Origin: Candidatus Komeilibacteria bacterium
GTDB lineage: Bacteria > Patescibacteriota > Patescibacteriia > UBA1558
Length of the DNA: 64,000 nt
Assembly: GCA_048538275.1 (NCBI GenBank)
Contig: JBLYPW010000001.1
Span: 299,924 to 363,923 of the forward strand
Direction of reading: 5' to 3'
A model generated the notes under the pieces. It saw only the letters and a list, made by a program, of their open reading frames with translations, was not told the origin of the DNA and ran no database searches. Positions within the stretch are counted from its first letter, which is position 1. The number at the start of each line of letters is the position of its first letter. Both the position numbers and the translations under genes were made by a program. This document shows, piece after piece, positions 8,331 through 63,510 of this stretch.

Positions 8331-8525
8331 ATGTTTTTACCAGTAGTTATAGTAATACTGGGCGTGGTATTGCTTCTCAATAATTTGGGTATAGTTAGCG
8401 CTAATGTTTGGGATGTGGTGTGGCCAATATTGATCATTGCCATTGGCATTGCTATGATGTCAAAGCGTCATTGTGGGTGGCTGCGTCACTGGCAACAAAG
8501 TGATGATGCTTCAGACAAGCAATAG
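8331..8525 (+). CDS. Small membrane protein (hypothetical)
   Basis: 64-aa ORF with two hydrophobic helices; hairpin+T-run terminator downstream. Confidence 0.3.
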   Translation: MFLPVVIVILGVVLLLNNLGIVSANVWDVVWPILIIAIGIAMMSKRHCGWLRHWQQSDDASDKQ

Positions 8526-8750: not shown

Positions 8751-11135
8751 ATGAAACGCTGGCTAATTTTATTGTTTAGTACGGTTGTCTGGGCACAAAA
8801 CTGGCAACCAGTGTATGAATTGTTTAATCCCGCCATGGCTGATCATTTTTACACTATGAATCAGACAGAAGTGGAAAATGCTACCAATAATATGGATTAT
8901 ACTAATCACGGTATAATTTATTATTGGTCTTCAGTGCCATTTAGTGGCGGTATACCAATTTATCGCTTATGGCATAGTTATGATCATTTTTATACCACGT
9001 CTGTGGTAGAAAGAGATGCTTGCGTGTCTAATGGTTATACCGATGAAGGCATAGTAGGTTATTTAGCTACAACCAATAGTGGTAATTTATTTGGCTGGCA
9101 TCGTTATTATCATTCTGATTGGGATGACCACGCCTATCCTGTTAGTCAAAATGACCGTGATGTTTTGTTTGCGGCTGGTTATATTGACGAAGGTATACAT
9201 GGTTATGTCTGGATGGAATCAGGTGACACCGGCGGCGGTTCTAATCAGCCACCTGACGCTAGTTGGACTAGTGAATTGTATGATCAGTATAATTATCAGG
9301 AAATCAGTTTTTCTTGGCAAGGTAGTGACGACAGCACGGCCAGTACTGATCTTTGGTATTATGTTGATATGTCCGGTGAAGACGGTTTTGCTTATTGGAC
9401 GCCTAATAATTATATTGCTGCTTGGCCAGGCGTTGGCGAACATACCCTGACTATTACTACCCGTGATCTGAATAATCAGCTGGATCCAAGTCCGTTGACT
9501 CATGATTTTGAGACAGTGGGACATATTCCGATTGCACCAGTCAATGTGGCTGCTGTAGAGACGGACGATGGCGCTGTGCAGTTGACTTGGCAGAGCGATG
9601 ACCAGTGGAATGTTGGTTTTCGTATTTGGCGTGATTATGATCAACAGATTGCTGATTTGGGTAGCAATGCTCGTCAGTATTTGGATAGTGAGGTGGTCCC
9701 GGGTGGCGCTTATCGTTATACTGTCGTGGCTTATAATTATTATGCTCATACATCCAGCGATCCGGTTTATATCACAATCGGTGGTGGTCAAGATGATTAT
9801 CCTTGGGCTGATCGTTTTGATTATCCAGTTGGTTATCCTGATTTTGTTGGTGGTTGGTACGATGCGCAACCATTTGGTTCGGTCTTGGCTGATGCGGCGC
9901 GTTTTCATTCCGGCAATGATTTGAATAAATATGGTGGTGATCTTGGCGAGCCGATTTATGCACCAGCCAATGCTACTATTGTTTATAAAACCAATAGTGC
10001 TAATGGGTGGGGCAAGGCATTAGTTTTGTCTAGCCAAGCAGACAATGATCACTCTTTTCGTTGGCCGGATGGACATCGTAGTCGCCAGGTTTACTTTTTG
10101 TTGGCGCATTTACAGGATATTGTTGTTTATGGCGATGATCAGACTTTCACTTATGACGATATTGTGGTCGGCAGCACCACAGTACAGCGCGGTTGGCAGG
10201 TAGCTACAGTGGGTAGTCCACCGAGCAGTAATAGTCCTCATTTACATTTGGAATGTTGGTCTGAGTGGGATAGTGATAACCCTTTAGGTTTTGGTTATTA
10301 TAATGTTTTGCCTACTGAAAAGTATGACGCCATGGAGTTTATTGCCAATAATCGCCGTTTGGATAATAGTTATTATATTTGGTCTCATCCTTACAACCGA
10401 GTGTCTGATTATAATAATTGGTTCACTACTTTGTCGGATGGATGGCAGATGATAACTGGGTATGATTATGATCCTGATGTGCCGATTGGATATAGTAATT
10501 ACTTTTTGGCAGCCCCAGCTGATCAAGCAGTGAGCGCTATGTGGCAGTGGTATGTTCCAGAAGATGGTGATTATAACTTATCAGTTTTTATTCCCAGCCA
10601 ATTTTATACTGGTAGTGGCCAATATCAGTTGCAGATCTATGGTCAAGATAATCAGTTTTTCACAGTTAATGGCGGTAGCTATAGCAATCAGTGGGTGCAA
10701 ATTGGTGATTTCTCTTTGTCCAGTGATGGCCCCACTCGTTTATTACTGAGTGGCGGCGATGGTAATGCTAATGAGTGGTTGGCAGCTGACGCTATTCGTT
10801 TGTATCGGCAAGTGGATACTGGCGGCTATACTAATATTGATGAGGAGCGGGCAAGGACTCTAAGCTCTGGTTTACAAGTTTATCCCAATCCTTTTAATAA
10901 TACGGTTACAATAAATTTTATTGTGGCTCAAGCTGGTTTGGTTGGCTTGGACATTTATAATTTATTGGGACAATTAGTATATAGTTGGCCAGATGAATAT
11001 TTGTCAGTTGGTCAATATAGCTATCAATGGCAAGCTCAAAATCAGATTGGGCAAAGCTTGCCCAGCGGTATTTATTTGTTATTACAACAAGATACGCAAG
11101 GTAAGCACATTGTCAAATTGCATTATTTGCGTTAA
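8751..11135 (+). CDS. Secreted multidomain M23 (LytM-type) metallopeptidase with N-terminal HFYT..E..GY.EGI.GY repeats, FN3 domain and T9SS type-A-like C-terminal sorting domain
   Basis: Signal peptide MKRWLILLFSTVVWAQ; M23 motifs HSGND and PHLHLE; FN3-like segment (LTWQ...YRYTVVAYN); C-terminus VYPNPFNNTVTINF...IYNLLGQLV...SGIYLL...K matches Por-secretion CTD pattern; RBS aaaggagg. Confidence 0.75.
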   Translation: MKRWLILLFSTVVWAQNWQPVYELFNPAMADHFYTMNQTEVENATNNMDYTNHGIIYYWSSVPFSGGIPIYRLWHSYDHFYTTSVVERDACVSNGYTDEGIVGYLATTNSGNLFGWHRYYHSDWDDHAYPVSQNDRDVLFAAGYIDEGIHGYVWMESGDTGGGSNQPPDASWTSELYDQYNYQEISFSWQGSDDSTASTDLWYYVDMSGEDGFAYWTPNNYIAAWPGVGEHTLTITTRDLNNQLDPSPLTHDFETVGHIPIAPVNVAAVETDDGAVQLTWQSDDQWNVGFRIWRDYDQQIADLGSNARQYLDSEVVPGGAYRYTVVAYNYYAHTSSDPVYITIGGGQDDYPWADRFDYPVGYPDFVGGWYDAQPFGSVLADAARFHSGNDLNKYGGDLGEPIYAPANATIVYKTNSANGWGKALVLSSQADNDHSFRWPDGHRSRQVYFLLAHLQDIVVYGDDQTFTYDDIVVGSTTVQRGWQVATVGSPPSSNSPHLHLECWSEWDSDNPLGFGYYNVLPTEKYDAMEFIANNRRLDNSYYIWSHPYNRVSDYNNWFTTLSDGWQMITGYDYDPDVPIGYSNYFLAAPADQAVSAMWQWYVPEDGDYNLSVFIPSQFYTGSGQYQLQIYGQDNQFFTVNGGSYSNQWVQIGDFSLSSDGPTRLLLSGGDGNANEWLAADAIRLYRQVDTGGYTNIDEERARTLSSGLQVYPNPFNNTVTINFIVAQAGLVGLDIYNLLGQLVYSWPDEYLSVGQYSYQWQAQNQIGQSLPSGIYLLLQQDTQGKHIVKLHYLR

Positions 11136-11143
11136 AAACAAAG

Positions 11144-11187
11144 CCCGCCCCGTCAGCTGAAGCTGACGGGGCGGATTTCTTTTTTTA
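11144..11187 (+). terminator. Strong rho-independent terminator
   Basis: 14-bp GC-rich stem cccgccccgtcagc/gctgacggggcgg followed by T-run. Confidence 0.7.
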
Positions 11188-15756: not shown

Positions 15757-17037
15757 ATGAAAGGCGATAAAATTGATAAAATTTATGCGCACGAAATTTT
15801 AGATTCGCGTGGTCATCCAACCGTGCAGGTGACTGTAACCTTGGATAATGGCATGTCCGCCAAGGCAGCGGTGCCTTCTGGCGCTTCTACTGGCGTACAC
15901 GAGGCTTTAGAACTGAGAGATAATGACCAGAGTCGTTTTCGTGGTAAAGGCGTATTACAAGCGGTACAGAATGTCAATACTATAATCAATGATTTATTGC
16001 ACGGCCATGAGATTGGGGATATAGAGGGTGTAGATAAAAAAATGATAGAAGCTGATGGTACTGAGAATAAAAGTAAATTGGGTGCTAATGCAATTTTGGG
16101 AGTTTCATTGGCGGTGGCTCGAGTAGGTGCTATTGCCTCTGGTTTGCCTTTGTACCAATATATTCGTGAAGTTTATAATTTGCAATATGATGGTTGGCGA
16201 TTGCCCACGCCTTTAGTAAACATTATCAATGGTGGTAAACATGCTGATAGTAATTTAGATTGGCAAGAGTTTTGGATAATACCGTCGGGCATCAAAAAAT
16301 ATCCTTTGGCTTTACGGGCGTGTTCAGAAATTTTTCATGCTTTAGGAAGCGAGTTAACCAAAAAAGGTTATGATACGGATTTTGGTGCTGAGGGTGGCTA
16401 TGCTCCTGATGTCAAAGATACTGCCGAAGTTTGGGATATGATTATAGCGGCTATAGCACAAGCCAACTATCAAATTGGTCAGGACATCTATTTGGGTATG
16501 GATGCGGGCGCTTCTACTTTTTATAATACCGGCACCGAGCGTTATCAACTGGATTTGGAAAATAAGTCTTTTACCGCTTCAGAATTGATTGAATATTATC
16601 ATACATGGTTGAATAAATATCCTATTTTAGCTTTGGAAGATGGTTTGGCGGAAGATGATTGGGTTGCTTGGCAAACCATGACGGCAGATAAAGAATTTGT
16701 TGATAAAAAAGTAATCCTGATCGGCGATGATTTGTTTACTACCAATACCAAACGCTTGCAACGTGGCATTGATGAGCATGTAGCTAATTCAATTTTGGTA
16801 AAGCCCAATCAAATTGGCACTTTGACGGAAACAATCGCGGCGGTAAAACTGGCACAAGCAAATAATTATCAAGTGGTTATTTCACATCGTAGTGGTGAAA
16901 CAACAGATGATTTTATCGCTGATTTGACAGTAGCTGTCAATGCTCCTTTTATTAAAACTGGTGCTACTTCTCGGGGCGAGCGGATAGTAAAATATAATAG
17001 ATTATTAGAAATAGCGGAGGAAGTAAATCATGAATAA
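15757..17037 (+). CDS. eno: Enolase
   Basis: Conserved enolase N-terminus (ILDSRGHPTV) and C-terminal SHRSGETTD motif. Confidence 0.9.
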   Translation: MKGDKIDKIYAHEILDSRGHPTVQVTVTLDNGMSAKAAVPSGASTGVHEALELRDNDQSRFRGKGVLQAVQNVNTIINDLLHGHEIGDIEGVDKKMIEADGTENKSKLGANAILGVSLAVARVGAIASGLPLYQYIREVYNLQYDGWRLPTPLVNIINGGKHADSNLDWQEFWIIPSGIKKYPLALRACSEIFHALGSELTKKGYDTDFGAEGGYAPDVKDTAEVWDMIIAAIAQANYQIGQDIYLGMDAGASTFYNTGTERYQLDLENKSFTASELIEYYHTWLNKYPILALEDGLAEDDWVAWQTMTADKEFVDKKVILIGDDLFTTNTKRLQRGIDEHVANSILVKPNQIGTLTETIAAVKLAQANNYQVVISHRSGETTDDFIADLTVAVNAPFIKTGATSRGERIVKYNRLLEIAEEVNHE

Positions 17038-18583
17038 TAAACGATCAAATACGCCATTATTATTAGCCATTCTAGATGGCTGGGGAATTGGTAAACCTAG
17101 CCGCGGCAATGCTATTACTTTAGGCAAAACCCCTAATTATGATAAATGGTGGCGTCATTATAGCCATACCAAGTTATTTACTTCTGGCCAATATGTTGGT
17201 TTGCCACGGGCGCAATTTGGCAATTCAGAAGCGGGGCATTTGAATTTGGGCGCGGGCCGGGTAGTTAAACAGGATTCAGTGCGGATCAGTGATGCAATTA
17301 AAGATGGGCGATTTGCCAAAAATCCCGCTTTTTTGACTGGCCTCCAACACTTACAAAAATATAAAGGTAGAGCTCATGTTATGGGTTTATTATCCGGTAG
17401 CGAGTCGGCTCATGCCGAACGAGGACATTTGTTGGCGGTATTGCAATTGTTAGCCGATCACAAGATTCGGGAGGTTTATTTACATTTATTTACTGATGGT
17501 CGTGATGCGCCTCAACATGATGCTATTAAATTTGTGCGAGAAGTACAAAAAGGTTTTTGTAATGGTGAGCGGATTGTATCCATTGTGGGACGTTATTATG
17601 CCATGGATCGCAATAAACGTTGGGGTAATACTGAGCGAGCATATGAATTATTAACACGTGGTAAAGGATATTGGGCACCTAATCCAGAAGAGGCTATTAT
17701 GCAGGCTTATAATCGCAAAGAGACAGATGAGTTTATAGAGCCGACTAGTATTCGTCCTAAAGAATCAGATAAGCCGATAGTGATTAAAGATAATGATATA
17801 ATTATATTTTATAATTTACGTTCAGATAGAGCACGGCAATTAGCTAAAACATTTGTACAGTCTGATTTTAATAAAAGTAATCTTGGATCTTTTATTCGCA
17901 AGCCGGTATTATCCAATATTAAATTTATTGCCATGACAGATTTTGGTCCAGATTTGGATGAGATTATTACTGCTTTTCCCAGTGAAGATCTCAAAGAAAC
18001 TTTGCCGATGATGCTAAAAGATTTAAGACAGCTGTATATTGCTGAAAGTGAAAAATTTGCCCATGTCACTTATTTTTTTAATGGCGGTTATGCTAATCCG
18101 GTTAATAATGAAAAACGCAGTTTAATTCCATCACCTCATTTGAAGTCTTATGCTGACAAACCAGCCATGTCTATAAATCATTTGGCAGACACTTTATTGT
18201 CTAATATTAAAGAAGATAAGTTTGATTTTTATTGTGTTAATTTTGCTAATCCAGATATGATTGGTCATACCGGTGATTTGGAAGCGGCTATACAAGCCGT
18301 AGAAGTGGTAGATGAAGTTATCGGCAAGATACAGTCAGCTTTGGCGGCTGTGGGAGGTACCATGATTATTACCGCTGACCATGGCAATATTGAAGCCATG
18401 ATTGATTTGAAAACAGGCGAAGTAAATACCGAGCACACAGACAATCCCGTTCCTTTCATTATTATCAATGAACATAAATATCGTTTGCGACGAGGAGGTA
18501 GTCTCGCCAATGTCGCGCCGACTATTTTAGATTTATTGGATTTACCCAAGAGCAAGCTGATGACTAAGTCTTTGTTAAAATAA
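17030..18583 (+). CDS. gpmI: 2,3-bisphosphoglycerate-independent phosphoglycerate mutase (copy 1)
   Basis: LAILDGWG, catalytic Ser context FGNSEAGHLNLGAGR, TDGRD, TADHGN motifs. Confidence 0.85.
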   Translation: MNNKRSNTPLLLAILDGWGIGKPSRGNAITLGKTPNYDKWWRHYSHTKLFTSGQYVGLPRAQFGNSEAGHLNLGAGRVVKQDSVRISDAIKDGRFAKNPAFLTGLQHLQKYKGRAHVMGLLSGSESAHAERGHLLAVLQLLADHKIREVYLHLFTDGRDAPQHDAIKFVREVQKGFCNGERIVSIVGRYYAMDRNKRWGNTERAYELLTRGKGYWAPNPEEAIMQAYNRKETDEFIEPTSIRPKESDKPIVIKDNDIIIFYNLRSDRARQLAKTFVQSDFNKSNLGSFIRKPVLSNIKFIAMTDFGPDLDEIITAFPSEDLKETLPMMLKDLRQLYIAESEKFAHVTYFFNGGYANPVNNEKRSLIPSPHLKSYADKPAMSINHLADTLLSNIKEDKFDFYCVNFANPDMIGHTGDLEAAIQAVEVVDEVIGKIQSALAAVGGTMIITADHGNIEAMIDLKTGEVNTEHTDNPVPFIIINEHKYRLRRGGSLANVAPTILDLLDLPKSKLMTKSLLK

Positions 18584-18589
18584 ATTTTT

Positions 18590-20176
18590 ATGTTTGAAGA
18601 CAGACCAAAACCAGTTGTGTTGCTTATTTTAGATGGCTGGGGAGTAGCGCCAGCTTCCAAGGCCAATGCTGTGACTTTGGCGGATACCAAAAATTTAGAT
18701 AGCTATATTTTGCAGTATCCGACAGTAACCTTGCAGGCGGCAGGAGAAGCTGTGGGTTTGTCTTGGGGAGAGATGGGTAATTCTGAAGTTGGACATTTAT
18801 CTTTGGGCAGCGGTAAGATTATTTATCAAAGTTTACCTCGTATTACTCGGGCCATTTCTGATCACTCTTTTTTTACCAATGAAGGGTTTATTAATGCCAC
18901 CAAGCATGTCAAAGAAAATAACAGTGCCTTACACTTAATGGGATTACTTTCAGATGGTAGCGTACATAGTTATAATGAGCATCTTTATGCTTTGGTAGAA
19001 ATGGCCAAGGAGCAGGAAGTCAGTAATGTATTTATACATATTTTCTTAGATGGCAGAGACACGGCCTATAATGCGGGTATAAAATTTGTTAAAAAATTGG
19101 AAGATAAGCTCAAGCAAATTGGCTTGGGCAGGATTGCTACTGTATCTGGTCGATATTATGCTATGGATAGAGATAATCATTGGGAGCGTATCGCGAAAAC
19201 TTATTGGGCTATGACTGAAGGGGAGTCAGATAAGCAATATAACAATGCCACAGACGCTATTCAAGCTTCTTATGATGCGGGTGTTTATGATGAAGAATTT
19301 GTGCCAGTAGTGATTAGCGATAATAATAAACCGGTAGCTATTGTAGGCGAAAAAGACGCCATAATATTTTTTAATTATAGATCGGATAGAGCACGGCAAT
19401 TGACCAAGGCCTTTGTTTTACCCAGTTTTGATAAGTTTGATAAGCCGCGACCTTATTTAAAGGATTTATATTTTGTCACTATGACAGAATATGAGAAAGA
19501 TTTACCGGTTAAGATCGCTTTTCCTCCTATACAGGTAGAAGCGTCTTTAGCAAAAGTTATTTCTCAAGCAGGATTAAGCCAATTACATATAGCGGAAACT
19601 GAAAAATACGCCCATGTTACATTTTTTTTCAATGGGGGCAGAGAAGAAAAATTTGCAAATGAAGATAGGATTTTGATTCCATCGCCTCGTATTCCAGCCT
19701 ATAATGCGCAGCCAGAAATGAGCGCCGGTCAGGTGACTAATAAGATAGTAGAGGCGGTCAAACAGAATAAATATGATTTTATAGTGGCAAATTTTGCTAA
19801 TCCAGATATGGTGGCTCACACCGGTGATATAAAAGCTACCATCATCGCTTTACAATTTATTGATCAGTCAGTTGGTCGTATAGTAGAGGCGGTCTTGGAA
19901 CGTAATGGAGTGATATTGATAACTGCTGATCATGGTAATGCTGAAGAGTTGTTTAAATTACAGACCGGAGAAATAGACAAAGAACATTCTACTAATCCCG
20001 TGCCACTCTATATTATTGCTAATGAATTGAAGGACAAAACTATTATTCCCGGAGTTAATCCTCAAAATCTATGCCAGCAAACGCCAGTAGGTATTTTGTC
20101 CGATGTAGCGCCAACTATTTTGCATATTATGGGATTAAAAAAACCCGCTACCATGACAGGCACGAGTTTGATTTAG
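18590..20176 (+). CDS. gpmI: 2,3-bisphosphoglycerate-independent phosphoglycerate mutase (copy 2, divergent tandem paralog)
   Basis: LLILDGWG, MGNSEVGHLSLGSGK, LDGRD, TADHGN motifs; immediately downstream of copy 1. Confidence 0.85.
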   Translation: MFEDRPKPVVLLILDGWGVAPASKANAVTLADTKNLDSYILQYPTVTLQAAGEAVGLSWGEMGNSEVGHLSLGSGKIIYQSLPRITRAISDHSFFTNEGFINATKHVKENNSALHLMGLLSDGSVHSYNEHLYALVEMAKEQEVSNVFIHIFLDGRDTAYNAGIKFVKKLEDKLKQIGLGRIATVSGRYYAMDRDNHWERIAKTYWAMTEGESDKQYNNATDAIQASYDAGVYDEEFVPVVISDNNKPVAIVGEKDAIIFFNYRSDRARQLTKAFVLPSFDKFDKPRPYLKDLYFVTMTEYEKDLPVKIAFPPIQVEASLAKVISQAGLSQLHIAETEKYAHVTFFFNGGREEKFANEDRILIPSPRIPAYNAQPEMSAGQVTNKIVEAVKQNKYDFIVANFANPDMVAHTGDIKATIIALQFIDQSVGRIVEAVLERNGVILITADHGNAEELFKLQTGEIDKEHSTNPVPLYIIANELKDKTIIPGVNPQNLCQQTPVGILSDVAPTILHIMGLKKPATMTGTSLI

Positions 20177-22985: not shown

Positions 22986-24734
22986 ATGAGTATTGAAAAA
23001 AATGGTGGTTTTAAGTCTCCAGAATTTAGCTCAACACCTTCAATAGAACAAAAAGAGCAAGCAAAAGAAAAACTTTTACAAGAAGCATTGCAAGAGAGCT
23101 ATGAGTTAAATTTAAATGCGGGTCATATTGTACATGCAGAAAAAATTAGCGAAGACAGAGGAATAAGTTTAAACTCAGAAATATTCCAGATAGCGTATGA
23201 TGCACAAATAAATAAGGGTGATATATATACCGCTACTAGGGTAGCTAAGTTAGCCGAAGGCAAGGGATTGAAATTAACCCCCAAAGCTGAAAGTTTGCAA
23301 TTAGGCTATGAAAAAGCAATGGAAATGGGAAAAAAATACGATATTGAAAAAATAAAACAGTTTGCCCAAGAAAAAGGCATTAAACTAACAGTAAATAAGG
23401 ATGCTATCCAAAAATGGTGCGATTATGCGCTTGAGAACGGTGATAGTGGCATATTAAAAGAAATAAAAAAAATTGCCAAAAAAGAAAGAATAGAATTAGA
23501 AGTAAAAAAAGAAGTGTTGCAAAAGACTTATGATAAAAAACTTAATGAGTTAGAAGATTTGATCTCATTAACAGAAATTGAACAATTTGCTAAACAGAAT
23601 GACATTGATTTGGAAGTTAATAAAAAGATTCTGCAACAAGGGCTTGAAAATTATATAGAGTATGCAGCACCTAGAGAACCATATGAAAACTTGTTAGCTG
23701 ATGTTAAAAAAATTATAAATTTTGCCACTAAGAAGGGTGTTAAGATAAATATAGATGATATAGATGACAAAAAGGTACAAGAACTATATGAGAAAGGGTT
23801 AATAAATGGGGACAGTAGAATGATCAAAGGGATGAAAAATCTTGCCAGTGAGAAAGGCATAGATTTGGATATTCAAAAGTTAGATTTACAGGAATTATAC
23901 GATAAGTTTTTTACAGATGGGGAAATATATATAGCGCAACAGATAAAAGAAATAGGTGACGAAAATGGTTTAGAAGTTAAAGTCCCGAGTAAAGAAAAAA
24001 TACAAAAAAATTATGATATACTGTTAGCTTCGGGTAATCAATATGGAGCACTTAAAATACAACAATTTAGTGGTGATAATGGAATAGCGATTGAAATAAA
24101 AAAGGATATGTTACAAAAGGCGTATGAGACAATTTGTAATGGTAACATGGAGAGTGTGAACCTTAATTATATGTCCGACCTTGAAGAAATGGCTAAAGAT
24201 AATGGATATGAGATTGAAAACGCTAAAGAGCTAATTGAAAAAACTTATATTGAAGTTATTCATAATTTGAATATGGGCCATGCTGGTGCCAAAAGGGAGG
24301 GGCTAATAAAAAAACTAAAGGAACTAGGCTCTGATCTAACCTATGAAGATGTTATCAAGATGGATTATCTTGATTATTTAAAAGTACCAGAAGAGCAAAG
24401 ATTGAGCATACAAAAGACAATGGAAATAGATGGTGCGCCCATAAGGGTTAGCTTTTATGGTCAGAAGCAAGAAGCTCCGGTACATGGTAAGTTTATCATC
24501 GGCACAAGTACAGATAATGGTTTAGAGTTTGTTTTCGATAGTACATTAGGAGAACATGGGGATATTGGCAACAAATATAATTTAGAAGTGATTGGTGGTG
24601 GTTGGTTGGAAATAGATGAAATAAACAAGAAAATAAAGATTCACAGAAATAGTGAGGATTATGGTTATGAACCGAGGTCTATATCTAAAAGAGTGATAGC
24701 TGATACTTTCTCTGATTACGAGATTATAGTGTAG
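22986..24734 (+). CDS. Tandem-repeat protein (~9 helical repeats of ~38-40 aa) with distinct C-terminal beta-rich domain; no signal peptide; strongly AT-rich
   Basis: Repeating I..FA...GI.L.V.K..LQ..Y.....NG pattern through residues ~100-420; composition ~30% GC versus ~40% in neighbours. Confidence 0.6.
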   Translation: MSIEKNGGFKSPEFSSTPSIEQKEQAKEKLLQEALQESYELNLNAGHIVHAEKISEDRGISLNSEIFQIAYDAQINKGDIYTATRVAKLAEGKGLKLTPKAESLQLGYEKAMEMGKKYDIEKIKQFAQEKGIKLTVNKDAIQKWCDYALENGDSGILKEIKKIAKKERIELEVKKEVLQKTYDKKLNELEDLISLTEIEQFAKQNDIDLEVNKKILQQGLENYIEYAAPREPYENLLADVKKIINFATKKGVKINIDDIDDKKVQELYEKGLINGDSRMIKGMKNLASEKGIDLDIQKLDLQELYDKFFTDGEIYIAQQIKEIGDENGLEVKVPSKEKIQKNYDILLASGNQYGALKIQQFSGDNGIAIEIKKDMLQKAYETICNGNMESVNLNYMSDLEEMAKDNGYEIENAKELIEKTYIEVIHNLNMGHAGAKREGLIKKLKELGSDLTYEDVIKMDYLDYLKVPEEQRLSIQKTMEIDGAPIRVSFYGQKQEAPVHGKFIIGTSTDNGLEFVFDSTLGEHGDIGNKYNLEVIGGGWLEIDEINKKIKIHRNSEDYGYEPRSISKRVIADTFSDYEIIV

Positions 24735-30544: not shown

Positions 30545-30573
30545 TTGACATATTTTTTTTATTTATATATACT
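30545..30573 (+). promoter_or_regulatory. Candidate sigma70 promoter upstream of rplJ leader (TTGACA-17-TATACT)
   Basis: TTGACA 30545-30550, TATACT 30568-30573. Confidence 0.3.
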
Positions 30574-30843
30574 GTTTTATAGCCGTAGACAGTAGGCGAG
30601 CACCAGCTCTTAAAATATCAGCCTATCGAGGTAACAGATTTTTTTGTTTACGGCCTAAATAGCCGTATTTTTTATTAAAATAATTTATGGACAAGCAAGA
30701 AAAGATTATATTTGGCTCAATTTTGATTAGTTATACTTTGTTGGTAATAGGAGTTTGGGAATACATAGCCAAGCCGATTATCACCTTTGCCCAGGAAATT
30801 ATTCATTTGTATTAATTTATATAAGTAATTATTAATCAGGTTT

Positions 30844-31926: not shown

Positions 31927-34068
31927 TTATAGAGGAATGACGAATAGGGTATGAGGTGTTATTAGGAAGGCGCGTTGCTGATCTTCTTGAATGCTCATAG
32001 CTTGTAGGTCAATGAATTTGTCGGAATGGTATTGTTTGATCAATTTGCCATTTTTATCCAGTACTATTAAACGATTATTCTCTGGATCCAGTAAATAAAT
32101 ATTAGCACTTTCGGGAGAGGTAAATAGTTGGCTGGGATTATTAAGCGGCGGGTATATGTTGATAGCTGGGAAATCTATTTGTCTGCCAGCGCTGAGTTTG
32201 ATAATTTTATTATTTTGTAAAATATAAATATTACCGTCAATGGCCAGATCCTTGGCATCAGTAAGATCAATATTGTCTTTTAGCCATAAATCGGGCGATT
32301 GAAAAGCATTGCCGACTAGGCGATGACGATAAACTTGATCGGTTTCATTATCTAATACATATAAGCGATTGAAAAAGCTAGTGGCTGATGAGACATTTTT
32401 TAATCCAGCACTATATGATATGGGCATGGGTTGCAGAGCATCATTGTTTACTTGGAAAATATTATTATTTTGATCAAAAATAATTATGCTATCATCCGGG
32501 GCTATGGTAGTAAATTTAATTTTTTGCATATTGGCAGGATAGGGAGTGGTGCTGAATTCTTTTTGTGTAAAATTATAATTTACCCAATCATTGCCATTGG
32601 TAAAAAGATAAATATTATCTTCTTGAGCCATAACTTTTTGCCAACTTATTGTTTGGTTTAGTTGATCACTACTTATGATCGCTACTGGCTCTGCTATATC
32701 CATAATATTCCAAATACGCTCGGTCAAAATATTAAGCTGTTGTCGCCAACCATCAATAGCATTTTGGTAATTTTTATCTGTCACAGGAAATTGATCGCGT
32801 AAAATAATCAGATCGTCTAGTAAAGTTTGAGCGCGTAGACGGTCACCATATATTAAAGCAGCTTCTATATTTTCACTTTTGTTGGTAAATTCATTATTGA
32901 TAGTAGTGAATTGTTCTTCCGTTAATCCCTGCGGGCCTTTAGATAAGAGGATAATAACTATTATTATGATAGCCGCAGCAATTAAGCCAGTGGCGACCAA
33001 CTTTTGTTTTAGGTTTATATGTTTTAGCCATTGCCAGCTCCAAGCACGACGGCGATGAATATTATCTGGATGGATAAGATTGACTATGATATTTTTTAGC
33101 TGCAATGCTATCCAGAGAAGTCCTATGCCTAGATTACGTAGTAACCACCATATTTTTTTTCCTAGCCAATGAAAAAATCTGATTAATAAAGGCATTATAT
33201 TGGATTGGCTGAAAGCGTCTTTCAAATTACTTAAAGTAGAGGTAAATGCTTGCCAACTGGATGGCACGGTCATAATTTGTTGGGTTTGTTTTTGCGTTAC
33301 TATTAACTGGTCTAAAGAAGCTTTGGATTTAACAGTAGTGGCATTATCATGCGGCCTGTTGATTGGCTCCATCGGTGTAATGTCTGGCGTAGACCTGTAT
33401 TCTTCTTCCGCTACGCTATTTTTTATAATAACACTTAAAAAAGAAACATGATCAGAAACCTCTGCCACCATATTTTGAAATTGGGCGGCAGCGGAGAGCG
33501 CCGGTATGGTGGTGATTATTTTTCGTACTTTGTCTAAAGATAAATAGTCAAGGAGAGAATCATTGGTTAACAAAAAAGCAAATCCTGGTTGTAATTGGCC
33601 AGTGATCACATTGGCAAATATTTTTACTGGATTAATAGGTCCATTGTCCTTACCGACAACATCTATAGCTTTTAACGGATGTAGTAAATAACCTTGCCAT
33701 TGACCGAGTAGAGAGATGTTTATAATATTATCTTTAATATTGCCTATGCCAATATTAAGATTTTGAAGAATTTTTTTATTGTGGGGCAAGTTTTGTGGTA
33801 GCCACTGATTTATTTCATTTAAGGAGTATTCTAAAATTTTAGTAGAATCTTCTAATACTGAGCTATAATAGAAATGGTGAATTTTTTCTAAAAATGCTCC
33901 AATAAATTTATCATAATCATTTTCCGGATTATTGATATTGATTAAAACAAAAAGACAGCCATTTTTAGCTAGCTGAGCAGGATCATTTTCCACGTATATA
34001 TCGCCGATGGAATCGGCGTGTACAGGGTCTTGTATAAAAATTTTAGCTGTTTGGATATTGGCTGCCAT
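31927..34068 (-). CDS. Membrane protein: N-terminal cytoplasmic domain, 2 TM helices, C-terminal beta-propeller-like extracytoplasmic repeat domain
   Basis: 713-aa ORF; TM segments in the middle; C-terminal repeated IYLLDPENNRLIVLDKNG / LYVLDNETDQVY / IYILQNNKII blade-like motifs. Confidence 0.5.
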   Translation of the reverse strand: MAANIQTAKIFIQDPVHADSIGDIYVENDPAQLAKNGCLFVLININNPENDYDKFIGAFLEKIHHFYYSSVLEDSTKILEYSLNEINQWLPQNLPHNKKILQNLNIGIGNIKDNIINISLLGQWQGYLLHPLKAIDVVGKDNGPINPVKIFANVITGQLQPGFAFLLTNDSLLDYLSLDKVRKIITTIPALSAAAQFQNMVAEVSDHVSFLSVIIKNSVAEEEYRSTPDITPMEPINRPHDNATTVKSKASLDQLIVTQKQTQQIMTVPSSWQAFTSTLSNLKDAFSQSNIMPLLIRFFHWLGKKIWWLLRNLGIGLLWIALQLKNIIVNLIHPDNIHRRRAWSWQWLKHINLKQKLVATGLIAAAIIIIVIILLSKGPQGLTEEQFTTINNEFTNKSENIEAALIYGDRLRAQTLLDDLIILRDQFPVTDKNYQNAIDGWRQQLNILTERIWNIMDIAEPVAIISSDQLNQTISWQKVMAQEDNIYLFTNGNDWVNYNFTQKEFSTTPYPANMQKIKFTTIAPDDSIIIFDQNNNIFQVNNDALQPMPISYSAGLKNVSSATSFFNRLYVLDNETDQVYRHRLVGNAFQSPDLWLKDNIDLTDAKDLAIDGNIYILQNNKIIKLSAGRQIDFPAINIYPPLNNPSQLFTSPESANIYLLDPENNRLIVLDKNGKLIKQYHSDKFIDLQAMSIQEDQQRAFLITPHTLFVIPL

Positions 34069-40300: not shown

Positions 40301-40375
40301 GCCGCCTTCGTCTAGTGGTTAGGACGCCAGGTTCTCATCCTGGTAACAGGGGTTCGACTCCCCTAGGCGGTACCA
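40301..40375 (+). tRNA. tRNA-Glu (anticodon CUC)
   Basis: Manually folded cloverleaf: acceptor GCCGCCT/AGGCGGT (G1-U72 wobble), D-arm GTCT/GGAC with 8-nt loop, anticodon stem CCAGG/CCTGG, loop TTCTCAT, 4-nt variable, T-arm AGGGG-TTCGACT-CCCCT, encoded CCA. Confidence 0.8.
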
Positions 40376-61587: not shown

Positions 61588-63510
61588 ATGGAAAATCCAG
61601 ACTGGCTAAAAAATAAATATAATGATTTACACAATACAAAAGAAGTAAAGTCAGCTGTTCGAGCAGAAGAGCAGTTTACTGGTGAAAAAGTACCACAGAA
61701 TCCAGAACAACAGATTCAAAGCTATTTAGATCGTTTAGAAAAGTTAGTCCTTGATCCAGATAAAAAGCAATCAAGGAAAATGATGGGTAAAGAGCAAAGA
61801 CCAAGAGCCCTATCCTTACTTAGAGAAATGGTAATGAATGAATATATTCGTCCTAATAAAGAAAAACTAGCAGAAGGAGCAGCCAGAGTAGAAGAAAGAG
61901 CAGCTAGGAACTTAGGAATGGATATTGAATATGGAGAAGAACAATTAGAACAAAGAGGTGAAATAGCTATAGAAGATTTAGAAAAATCACTAGATAATTG
62001 GATTTCTTATCTTTCAGATGCTAATGAACCATATCCAACTTGGTTTAGATATTATGCTTTTAGAAATATATTAAAGCTAGGAGATTATGATAAAGACAAA
62101 AAAGAGTTTACCAAGAGAACTAAAGGTAGTACTAAACTATTCCCCGAAATAGATAGGGGAGCCTTAGCATATATACAGCAAAATATAGAAGCTTCTAAAG
62201 ATCCTAAAATACTTGCCAAGCTTCAAGAAGCACAAAAACAAGCAGCTAATGGTGATGTTCCAGAAGATCAGCTTATCACCAAAGAAAAGGTACAAAACTT
62301 TTCTAATCTTTCCTTTGCTAAGCAATATGCAGAAGGAATATCTAAAAATGGTGAAATAACCCCAGAGCTTAGAGCCATAACAGAAGGTAAATGGGTTAAG
62401 TATCAACAAGGTACAGAACCAACAGCTCTTTGGTCATCTCTACAAAACAAAGGCACAGCTTGGTGTACAAAAGGTTTTGCTACAGCCAAAACTCAACTTG
62501 AAGGTGGAGATTTTTATGTATATTACACATTAGATAAAAAAGGCAGTCCTACTATTCCTAGAATAGCTATAAGAATGCAAGGAGAGAATGTAGGAGAAGC
62601 CAGAGGAGTAGAAGACAGTGATCAGAATATGGAAGGTAATATGATAGCTATTGCCGAAGAAAAGCTAAGTACACTTCCAGGAGCTGAAAGCTATAAAGAA
62701 AAAACAGCTGACATGAAAATGCTTACTAGTATATATAACAGACATAAGCAAGGAGAAGAACTTATAAAAGAAGACCTTATCTTTTTATATGAAATAGATA
62801 AACCTATTCAAGGCTTTGGTTATAAAAAAGATCCGAGAATAGAAGAAATACGAGACAAAAGAGATGTAACCAAAGATGCATCAATTGTATTTGAATGCAC
62901 TCCAGATCAAATAGCTAAAAATATTAATGAAGTAAATGAAAATACAGTAGCATATATAGGGCAATGGAATATACCAGCTTTTCAAGTAATTAAAAACCAT
63001 CCCAATATTATTTACTTTTATGAATCTTTCCCAGATAAAAAGATATTCATGCAAACTCTAGAAACAGATCCTAGTATAGATTCACCTGATACAGCCAAAC
63101 AGTCTCTTAAAGATAAGAACATCTATCTTTCAGATTGGGGAAAGGATATTTTAGAAAAAACAGAGTTTAGTAAAGAAAAACAAGAATATGATTTAGTGAG
63201 ATTTACAGTAGAGCAATTAGGATTTCCAAATGGTGCTACTACTGATGAAATATATAATAAAGCTCAAGAGCTCGGACTTGAATTATGTCCAGCTGAAATT
63301 GGACCTCAATTAAGATTACAAAGTACTAGTAAGGAATGGATGCTTATTGCTATGAAACAGATTATAGACCGTGATGGCGCTCCGTCGCTGTTCGATCTGC
63401 GTGATGATGGTTATCAGCTGGTACTGAGCAGCGACGGTGCTTGGTCTGACGGCAGGTGGTTTTCGGACGGTAGGTTTGTGTTTCATTACCGCCCCAGTAG
63501 CAAAGCGTAG
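61588..63510 (+). CDS. Orphan 640-aa hypothetical protein; AT-rich body with abrupt GC-rich 3' end
   Basis: Long uninterrupted ORF, charged/low-complexity N-terminus, no signal peptide; composition shift at ~63360. Confidence 0.5.
   Translation: MENPDWLKNKYNDLHNTKEVKSAVRAEEQFTGEKVPQNPEQQIQSYLDRLEKLVLDPDKKQSRKMMGKEQRPRALSLLREMVMNEYIRPNKEKLAEGAARVEERAARNLGMDIEYGEEQLEQRGEIAIEDLEKSLDNWISYLSDANEPYPTWFRYYAFRNILKLGDYDKDKKEFTKRTKGSTKLFPEIDRGALAYIQQNIEASKDPKILAKLQEAQKQAANGDVPEDQLITKEKVQNFSNLSFAKQYAEGISKNGEITPELRAITEGKWVKYQQGTEPTALWSSLQNKGTAWCTKGFATAKTQLEGGDFYVYYTLDKKGSPTIPRIAIRMQGENVGEARGVEDSDQNMEGNMIAIAEEKLSTLPGAESYKEKTADMKMLTSIYNRHKQGEELIKEDLIFLYEIDKPIQGFGYKKDPRIEEIRDKRDVTKDASIVFECTPDQIAKNINEVNENTVAYIGQWNIPAFQVIKNHPNIIYFYESFPDKKIFMQTLETDPSIDSPDTAKQSLKDKNIYLSDWGKDILEKTEFSKEKQEYDLVRFTVEQLGFPNGATTDEIYNKAQELGLELCPAEIGPQLRLQSTSKEWMLIAMKQIIDRDGAPSLFDLRDDGYQLVLSSDGAWSDGRWFSDGRFVFHYRPSSKA

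Follow-up and report, generated by a model that had tools for sequence, protein, structure and literature searches.

Type IX secretion system (T9SS) cargo proteins carry a C-terminal domain (CTD), and such domains routinely serve as a genomic marker for counting T9SS cargo. Structures of the T9SS translocon indicate that the conserved CTD motifs set the fold of the domain rather than its contacts with the translocon, and a lysine near the C-terminus is the one residue of the domain for which a contact with PorV and a functional role have been reported (PMC10994853). The system has been described as restricted to the Fibrobacterota–Chlorobiota–Bacteroidota (FCB) superphylum (PMC11205867; PMC12421860), and Patescibacteria, bacteria of the candidate phyla radiation (CPR), have been proposed to have no outer membrane (PMC12102498). 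In the literature that we searched, no paper discussed T9SS or the Por sorting domain in connection with CPR bacteria or Patescibacteria. Here, we analyze a gene at positions 8751..11135 (+ strand) of a 64,000-nucleotide stretch of a Candidatus Komeilibacteria genome (contig JBLYPW010000001.1), referred to below as the window, which encodes a predicted secreted peptidase of family M23, built of several domains and ending in one of T9SS type-A-like character. The explanation that we favor, at slightly better than even confidence, is that this protein is a Sec-exported M23/LytM peptidoglycan endopeptidase, targeted to glycans, whose CTD would act as a terminal beta-sandwich independent of T9SS, and that its gene is conserved and vertically inherited in Komeilibacteria.

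The open reading frame (ORF) starts with ATG and yields a product of 794 amino acids (aa), of which the CTD (10878..11132, +) forms residues 710–794, at the extreme C-terminus and at the opposite end from an N-terminal signal peptide. Both curated models of the domain pass their cut-offs: PF18962 (Por_Secre_tail) matches residues 710–789 at 32.5 bits against a gathering cut-off of 27, and TIGR04183, the T9SS type A sorting domain of NCBIfam, scores 29.5 bits against 23. An earlier note on this DNA, written from the letters alone, had named this hidden Markov model (HMM) comparison as the check on its CTD assignment, and the scores bear that assignment out. The characteristic motifs can be read directly as YPNPFN at 711–716, GIY at 773–775 and K789. 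Every family member whose C-terminus is complete, nine in all, ends in a CTD, and homologues P0210 and P0004 also match the CTD model. Within the family CTD, P-N-P-F-N, G740, G754, W760, G-x-Y and K789 are invariant, the last of these across the seven complete family CTDs that were aligned. Mean pairwise identity in the family falls from 62% for the N-terminal DUF5648 domain through 57% (M23), 53% (Ig-like), 43% (FN3) and 41% (Golvesin_C) to 40% for the CTD, with the linkers at 20–27%. Because its identity lies near that of FN3 and Golvesin_C and well above that of the linkers, the CTD is evidently kept as a folded domain.

We modeled the last 94 residues alone from 19 sequences and obtained a beta-sandwich with six DSSP strands and a predicted local distance difference test score (pLDDT) of 85.5. 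In a Foldseek search of the PDB, the Ig-like domains of FlgD ranked first (template-modeling score 0.64), followed by PorU (6za2), PorZ (5m11) and the translocon-bound NucA CTD (8glk_D), so that the modeled fold alone does not tell FlgD-Ig from type-A CTD proteins. This ranking, together with a weak FlgD_ig match of 21 bits and a subclade (P0006–P0008) in which FlgD_ig stands beside a weak Por_Secre_tail match, would fit a generic Ig-like or FlgD-type beta-sandwich whose T9SS label is an HMM cross-match. We consider this very unlikely, since FlgD_ig and the type-B tail CHU_C (19 bits) both fall below their cut-offs on the same protein whereas the two curated CTD models lie above theirs, and the invariant YPNPFN, G-x-Y and near-terminal lysine sit at the C-terminal extreme of a protein with a signal peptide. 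Moreover, a profile built from the CTD and its nearest relatives retrieved the solved T9SS substrate CTDs 8glk_D, 8glj_D and mirolase from the PDB, along with CTD-bearing enzymes. A search of a 5.8-billion-protein database with the CTD alone returned short fragments only, which were uninformative about cargo in CPR bacteria. On both sequence and modeled fold, the last 85 residues genuinely belong to the T9SS type-A CTD family.

The lineage assignment holds as well. An identical protein (P0001) is deposited at NCBI as "MAG: T9SS type A sorting domain-containing protein" from Candidatus Komeilibacteria bacterium, where MAG denotes a metagenome-assembled genome, on a contig of 487 kb; in the NCBI taxonomy, Komeilibacteria belong to the Parcubacteria group within Patescibacteria. 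The architecture is shared, at 43–49% identity, by nine more clusters of homologues, either full-length or partial, and those carrying a name are Komeilibacteria. In the window, the gene order runs adenine glycosylase, rpsB, tsf, pyrH, glyceraldehyde-3-phosphate dehydrogenase (GAPDH), a small transmembrane protein, the M23-CTD gene and DUF389. The upstream series recurs in locus L001, on an 860-kb Komeilibacteria contig, and locus L005 has GAPDH upstream and DUF389 downstream of the homologous gene, as in the window. The small protein directly upstream (8331..8525, +) is a two-helix membrane protein of 64–79 aa that is 48% identical to its counterpart at 8999–9238 of L001; it is a conserved syntenic neighbor outside any assigned family.

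These observations bear on whether the finding is an ordinary one, either because the contig was misbinned from an FCB bacterium or because other parts of the Komeilibacteria genome encode T9SS and an outer membrane. The window covers about 13% of the 487-kb contig, which leaves some room for the second variant. Both variants nonetheless appear extremely unlikely. Misbinning or recent transfer is improbable because the identical protein is deposited from Komeilibacteria, the gene order is shared among several MAGs, with the gene lying among housekeeping genes on long Komeilibacteria contigs, and the GC content is uniform through the window (0.35–0.43). The gene content fits a reduced genome: the window genes scanned include glycolysis enzymes, PBP2, a Mur ligase, YceG, UppP, a MacB/HlyD ABC system, DUF4012, a CAP-domain protein and HtrA, with no outer-membrane genes among the ORFs scanned, and the literature cited above limits T9SS to the FCB superphylum and argues for Patescibacteria without an outer membrane. 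The earlier note's guess of a monoderm, CPR-like genome was right, given the Komeilibacteria deposit, and the branch in which it supposed the lineage assignment to be wrong is rejected by the conserved synteny on the 487-kb and 860-kb contigs.

We searched for T9SS machinery and for further CTD cargo in the available DNA, which for Komeilibacteria comprised the 64-kb window and some 60 kb from relatives. Neither the larger window ORFs, which are the ones that were scanned, nor the related loci yielded matches to families of T9SS or outer-membrane biogenesis, and the earlier statement that the window holds no such machinery stands for these larger ORFs. Two CTD HMMs, one built from the family CTDs and the other from general CTD matches, were run on six-frame translations of the loci. 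Across approximately 125 kb of non-redundant Komeilibacteria DNA, the M23 family was the sole match, and about 104 kb of other CPR loci gave no match. Two CTD proteins were found in L002, a single 22-kb locus with diderm-type genes (LolA). P0030, the best CTD match outside the family, was discarded as evidence for CPR bacteria, as its locus has diderm-type genes (LolA, histidine and molybdopterin biosynthesis). A lone CTD family, albeit in a small sample of DNA, points away from a multi-cargo sorting system.

The rest of the protein is composed of several further modules. A Sec-type signal peptide, MKRWLILLFSTVVWA followed by QNWQ (8751..8798, +), was read by eye rather than called by a predictor; it contains no Cys and no lipobox, which indicates that the protein is not a lipoprotein. 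The hydrophobic N-terminus and the ensuing QNWQPVYEL are kept across the family alignment, and residues 2–16 form a low-confidence helix in the full-length AlphaFold model, which was built from a ten-sequence alignment with a mean pLDDT of 70.9. A DUF5648 domain follows (8799..9218, +), matched by PF18885 over residues 16–105 at 99 bits against a cut-off of 25. Its three HFYT...GY.EG..GY repeats, at approximately residues 32–59, 79–105 and 125–152, correspond in the AlphaFold model to three beta-beta-alpha-beta units over residues 18–154, a three-bladed propeller. Next come an Ig-like beta-sandwich spacer of no Pfam family (9249..9518, +; all-beta over residues 169–256, pLDDT ~80–90) and a fibronectin type III (FN3) domain (9519..9785, +). 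The latter had been predicted in the earlier note and is borne out by its fold, but PF00041 gave no match at E ≤ 1 in the Pfam scan of the 794-aa protein, and among homologues only P0004 matched it, weakly. Foldseek with the whole model returned FN3 and Ig arrays only.

The M23 (LytM-type) metallopeptidase domain (9804..10370, +) contains an insertion, and PF01551 matches it in two stretches split by that insertion, scoring 29.5 bits and thus only marginally above the gathering score (28.7); relatives score 44–49 bits. All of the zinc and catalytic residues are present, namely H386-x3-D390, H453 and H497-L-H499, and these five are invariant in the ten family members and in relatives at ~30% identity (alignments A1 and A4). 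Stand-alone M23 peptidases of about 200 aa also match the catalytic region, at E = 1e-24. Directly behind lies a Golvesin_C domain (10371..10820, +), a beta-sandwich resembling carbohydrate-binding module (CBM) families 6, 35 and 36, which PF25275 matches over residues 582–685 at 45.4 bits against a cut-off of 31.6. Altogether, the parts of the protein are all drawn from known families, the protein has already been deposited and automatically named, and the earlier reading of a type-A CTD, a LytM-type M23 domain and three DUF5648 repeats was correct.

Two of these modules probably bind carbohydrate, judging by their described relatives. DUF5648 has been described as a three-bladed glycan-recognition propeller in O-antigen-targeting toxins, for which glycan binding has been proposed (bioRxiv 10.1101/2025.01.06.631476); it forms the receptor-binding domain of the Bacteroidales BSAP toxins aimed at O-antigen and is also found fused to a GH25 endolysin of an enterococcal prophage. 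Golvesin is one of two characterized proteins listed with a CBM6-CBM35-CBM36_like_2 domain (PMC9166713), which we infer to be equivalent to Pfam Golvesin_C. As to where these parts came from, following the DUF5648 module through P0014 led to an uninformative context, and a phage origin of the gene was set aside, as viral contigs gave only two weak M23 matches.

Relatives of the catalytic core show that its C-terminal partner varies by lineage. When GTDB species genomes were scanned with the aligned M23-Golvesin_C core, 15 loci were recovered: three from Komeilibacteria, others from Parcubacteria, Uhrbacteria and Buchananbacteria MAGs, four labeled "uncultured Gammaproteobacteria" and four from Chloroflexi MAGs, the last with the reversed order of Golvesin_C then M23. 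Of the sequence searches, a full-length-alignment profile run against 1.84 billion representatives was dominated by giant FN3-repeat proteins, with P0098, P0149, P0154 and P0180 the few useful core relatives, and a homologue search with the core alignment found mostly stand-alone M23 proteins rather than multidomain relatives. The CPR sister proteins from outside Komeilibacteria (L009 8927–11611, L011 451–3246, L014 7070–9979 and L016 4000–6630, and also L010, L012, L013 and L015) are 770–970 aa long and possess a signal peptide and the M23-Golvesin_C core, which FN3 precedes in all but L013; Golvesin_C follows M23 in every CPR relative. They have a different N-terminal domain, no DUF5648 and no CTD.

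In place of the CTD, the sister proteins end in an invariant Cys within (F/L/W/V)GC, about 12 further residues, a hydrophobic helix and basic residues. This Cys-transmembrane-basic tail is laid out like a tripartite signal for sorting or anchoring at the C-terminus, which we take to resemble MYXO-CTERM or JDVT-CTERM tails, and it may be an undescribed CPR sorting signal. No NCBIfam model reached its cut-off on it, the only match being JDVT-CTERM at 14 bits against 27 in L013. The metagenomic relatives P0149, P0154 and P0180 have tails similar to it. P0098 (1184 aa; European Nucleotide Archive, 12.9-kb contig) is the closest relative outside Komeilibacteria with a DUF5648 N-terminus, and combines this with Big_7, three HYDIN/ASH Ig domains, M23, Golvesin_C and PKD; its C-terminus may be dockerin-like, by a reading without HMM support. 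An unsupported neighbor-joining tree of the M23 domain places Komeilibacteria in a single clade, whose sister group comprises P0098 and the Cys-tail proteins, with Chloroflexi outside, and the tree cannot show which C-terminal module is ancestral. A shared catalytic core has thus been joined to different C-terminal modules by lineage, with the T9SS-type CTD as the Komeilibacteria version.

The "uncultured Gammaproteobacteria" labels on L010, L012, L013 and L015 look wrong, and these are probably CPR genomes. L010 and the Parcubacteria locus L009 have syntenic arginyl-tRNA synthetases with 62% identity, and the L015 protein is close to the Buchananbacteria L016 protein, with matching N- and C-terminal sequences.

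The swapping of C-terminal modules bears on whether, in the organism that makes it, the CTD works as a signal for sorting or anchoring, such that an unrecognized pathway independent of T9SS fixes the enzyme to its own wall, S-layer or lipid, possibly with cleavage of the CTD. If the Cys-transmembrane tails of the sister proteins and the putatively dockerin-like end of P0098 are set beside the CTD, the C-terminus looks like an exchangeable localization module; the CTD, for its part, is always at the C-terminal extreme, evolves under purifying selection and retains the lysine that matters for function. Against such a pathway, dedicated sorting systems normally serve several cargos, and a single tagged family was found in about 125 kb of Komeilibacteria DNA. 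No sortase-like candidate is conserved alongside the gene either, its neighbors being GAPDH, the small transmembrane protein, and DUF389 or a SpoU methylase. The fold alone also explains the conserved motifs: because the motifs specify the fold, their retention needs no T9SS (PMC10994853). On balance we regard a producer-side sorting signal as unlikely. The alternative raised in the earlier note, co-option of the CTD for some other route of surface anchoring, is not established, as motif retention alone does not imply a sorting function.

We return to the explanation that we favor, a T9SS-independent wall hydrolase. The protein would cross the single membrane by Sec, after which the DUF5648 propeller and the CBM-like Golvesin_C domain would probably hold it on a glycan-bearing cell envelope, with the Ig-like and FN3 domains as putative spacers. 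The predicted M23 domain would cut peptidoglycan cross-links, and the CTD would stay attached as a terminal beta-sandwich that helps to localize, position or stabilize the enzyme, or lets the released enzyme adhere. Because the organism probably has neither an outer membrane nor T9SS, the CTD is most likely no outer-membrane export signal. We slightly favor the wall of a host over that of the producer as the target, because the lectin architecture reaches outward. A predatory or epibiotic role is plausible. All cultivated Patescibacteria are obligate episymbionts (PMC12206443), and a Saccharibacterium is reported to require homologues of peptidases and lysozyme for its epibiotic growth (work cited in PMC12102498).

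In another possible reading, the CTD is aimed at a host that itself possesses T9SS, and the episymbiont would dock the enzyme, with its DUF5648 lectin, onto PorV, the attachment complex or the envelope of an FCB-group bacterium. The CTD does bind PorV in solved complexes (PMC10994853), the lysine that makes this contact is invariant here, DUF5648 is the receptor-binding domain of Bacteroidales toxins aimed at O-antigen, and cultivated Patescibacteria are all obligate episymbionts. All of this is entirely indirect, however. In T9SS, PorV encounters the CTD on the side of the periplasm or translocon and not from the cell exterior, and homologue searches turned up neither a donor in FCB bacteria nor a close homologue of full length there. 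We think host docking very unlikely. Taken as a whole, the proposition that the CTD, rather than being a relic, functions as an address label beyond the FCB superphylum, whether through unrecognized surface attachment in a single-membrane cell or through docking onto a Bacteroidota-type host, seems to us unlikely, though not negligibly so.

Several observations weigh against a T9SS-independent beta-sandwich on a glycan-targeted wall hydrolase. Alone among the features of the CTD, the invariant K789, counterpart of the lysine reported to contact PorV, hints at selection on something beyond the fold, and the anchor-like tail at the same position in the sister proteins suggests that the C-terminus is a localization device rather than a passive domain. 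Enzyme activity, substrate, glycan binding and localization are all predictions from sequence or models, and the M23 score barely exceeds its Pfam cut-off. Finally, the absence of T9SS, PorU/PorV and an outer membrane in Komeilibacteria is assumed from the lineage literature, with 64 kb of this genome and ~60 kb of related ones having been read.

It is unusual for a bona fide type-A CTD to be kept stably and vertically, within a CPR lineage, by just one protein family, and also unusual is the lineage-specific swap of C-terminal modules on a shared wall-hydrolase core. A CTD long inherited in a lineage expected to be without T9SS and an outer membrane would mean that the domain can persist without the secretion system, and an automatic T9SS annotation should accordingly be treated with caution and not be taken as a secretion pathway. 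Should the address-label proposition nevertheless prove true, this would be the first CTD function independent of the producer's own T9SS. In either case, the family is one of few conserved large extracellular wall-active enzymes in reduced, probably symbiotic bacteria, and the combination of one core with different localization modules offers a practical entry to how CPR bacteria place enzymes on their own or a host's surface.

Downstream, an intrinsic terminator at 11145..11184 (+), with a hairpin at 11145–11174 whose 13–14 bp stem contains 11 G-C pairs and is followed by a T-run, ends the transcription unit 3' of the M23-CTD gene. In L001 (14895–22316) and L003 (5585–12988), a PAS histidine kinase and a response regulator precede type IV pilus genes for a PilB-like ATPase, a PilC-like platform protein and a ~980-aa pilin-like protein with a Laminin_G/CBM domain, an arrangement that lies 2.5–8 kb downstream of the M23-CTD gene. 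A functional link between the two was rejected, as the pilus genes of L001 and L003 are absent from the window and from L005. Elsewhere in the window, two adjacent full-length paralogues of bisphosphoglycerate-independent phosphoglycerate mutase (iPGM_N plus Metalloenzyme) lie at 17030–18583 and 18590–20176, directly after phosphoglycerate kinase and enolase. Three large ORFs have no convincing Pfam or NCBIfam family, at 31930–34068 (−, 713 aa), 61588–63510 (+, 640 aa) and 22986–24734 (+, 582 aa), the last of which showed only a weak Ocnus match and a chance-level match to the CTD HMM. The only two RNA family matches in the window are a ribosomal protein L10 leader at 30565–30682 (Rfam RF00557, 54 bits) and a single tRNA-Glu(CTC) at 40301–40375.

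Compared with described systems, the Komeilibacteria CTD is like those of Bacteroidota T9SS type-A cargo, such as Flavobacterium johnsoniae NucA (8GLK chain D), in passing the model cut-offs, in its place at the C-terminal end of a protein with a signal peptide, in its modeled beta-sandwich and in its motifs; a beta-sandwich CTD is likewise found in PorU and PorZ of Porphyromonas gingivalis. Unlike the Bacteroidota that carry such domains, Komeilibacteria are CPR bacteria, as far as is known without an outer membrane or T9SS, and unlike L002, with its two CTD proteins in 22 kb, the available Komeilibacteria DNA holds one CTD-tagged family. The catalytic half resembles stand-alone M23/LytM (PF01551) peptidases, with HxxxD, H and HxH intact and 30–37% identity; the nearest sequence relatives found are the ~200-aa stand-alone proteins of Leptospiraceae, Bacteroidia and Verrucomicrobiales MAGs. 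In contrast to these, the catalytic domain here spans ~190 aa with an insertion, is always followed by Golvesin_C and is set in a Komeilibacteria-specific lectin/Ig/FN3 architecture of ~800 aa. As in the BSAP-2 and BSAP-3 toxins and the GH25-DUF5648 endolysin, a three-bladed DUF5648 module is fused to a domain predicted to attack the cell envelope, catalytic or toxic in those proteins, but here DUF5648 is N-terminal and its partner is M23. A further comparison is with the sister CPR proteins (L009–L016), which share the signal peptide, the FN3-M23-Golvesin_C core and the catalytic residues, and from which the Komeilibacteria protein differs in having DUF5648 and a CTD where theirs have a Cys-transmembrane tail.

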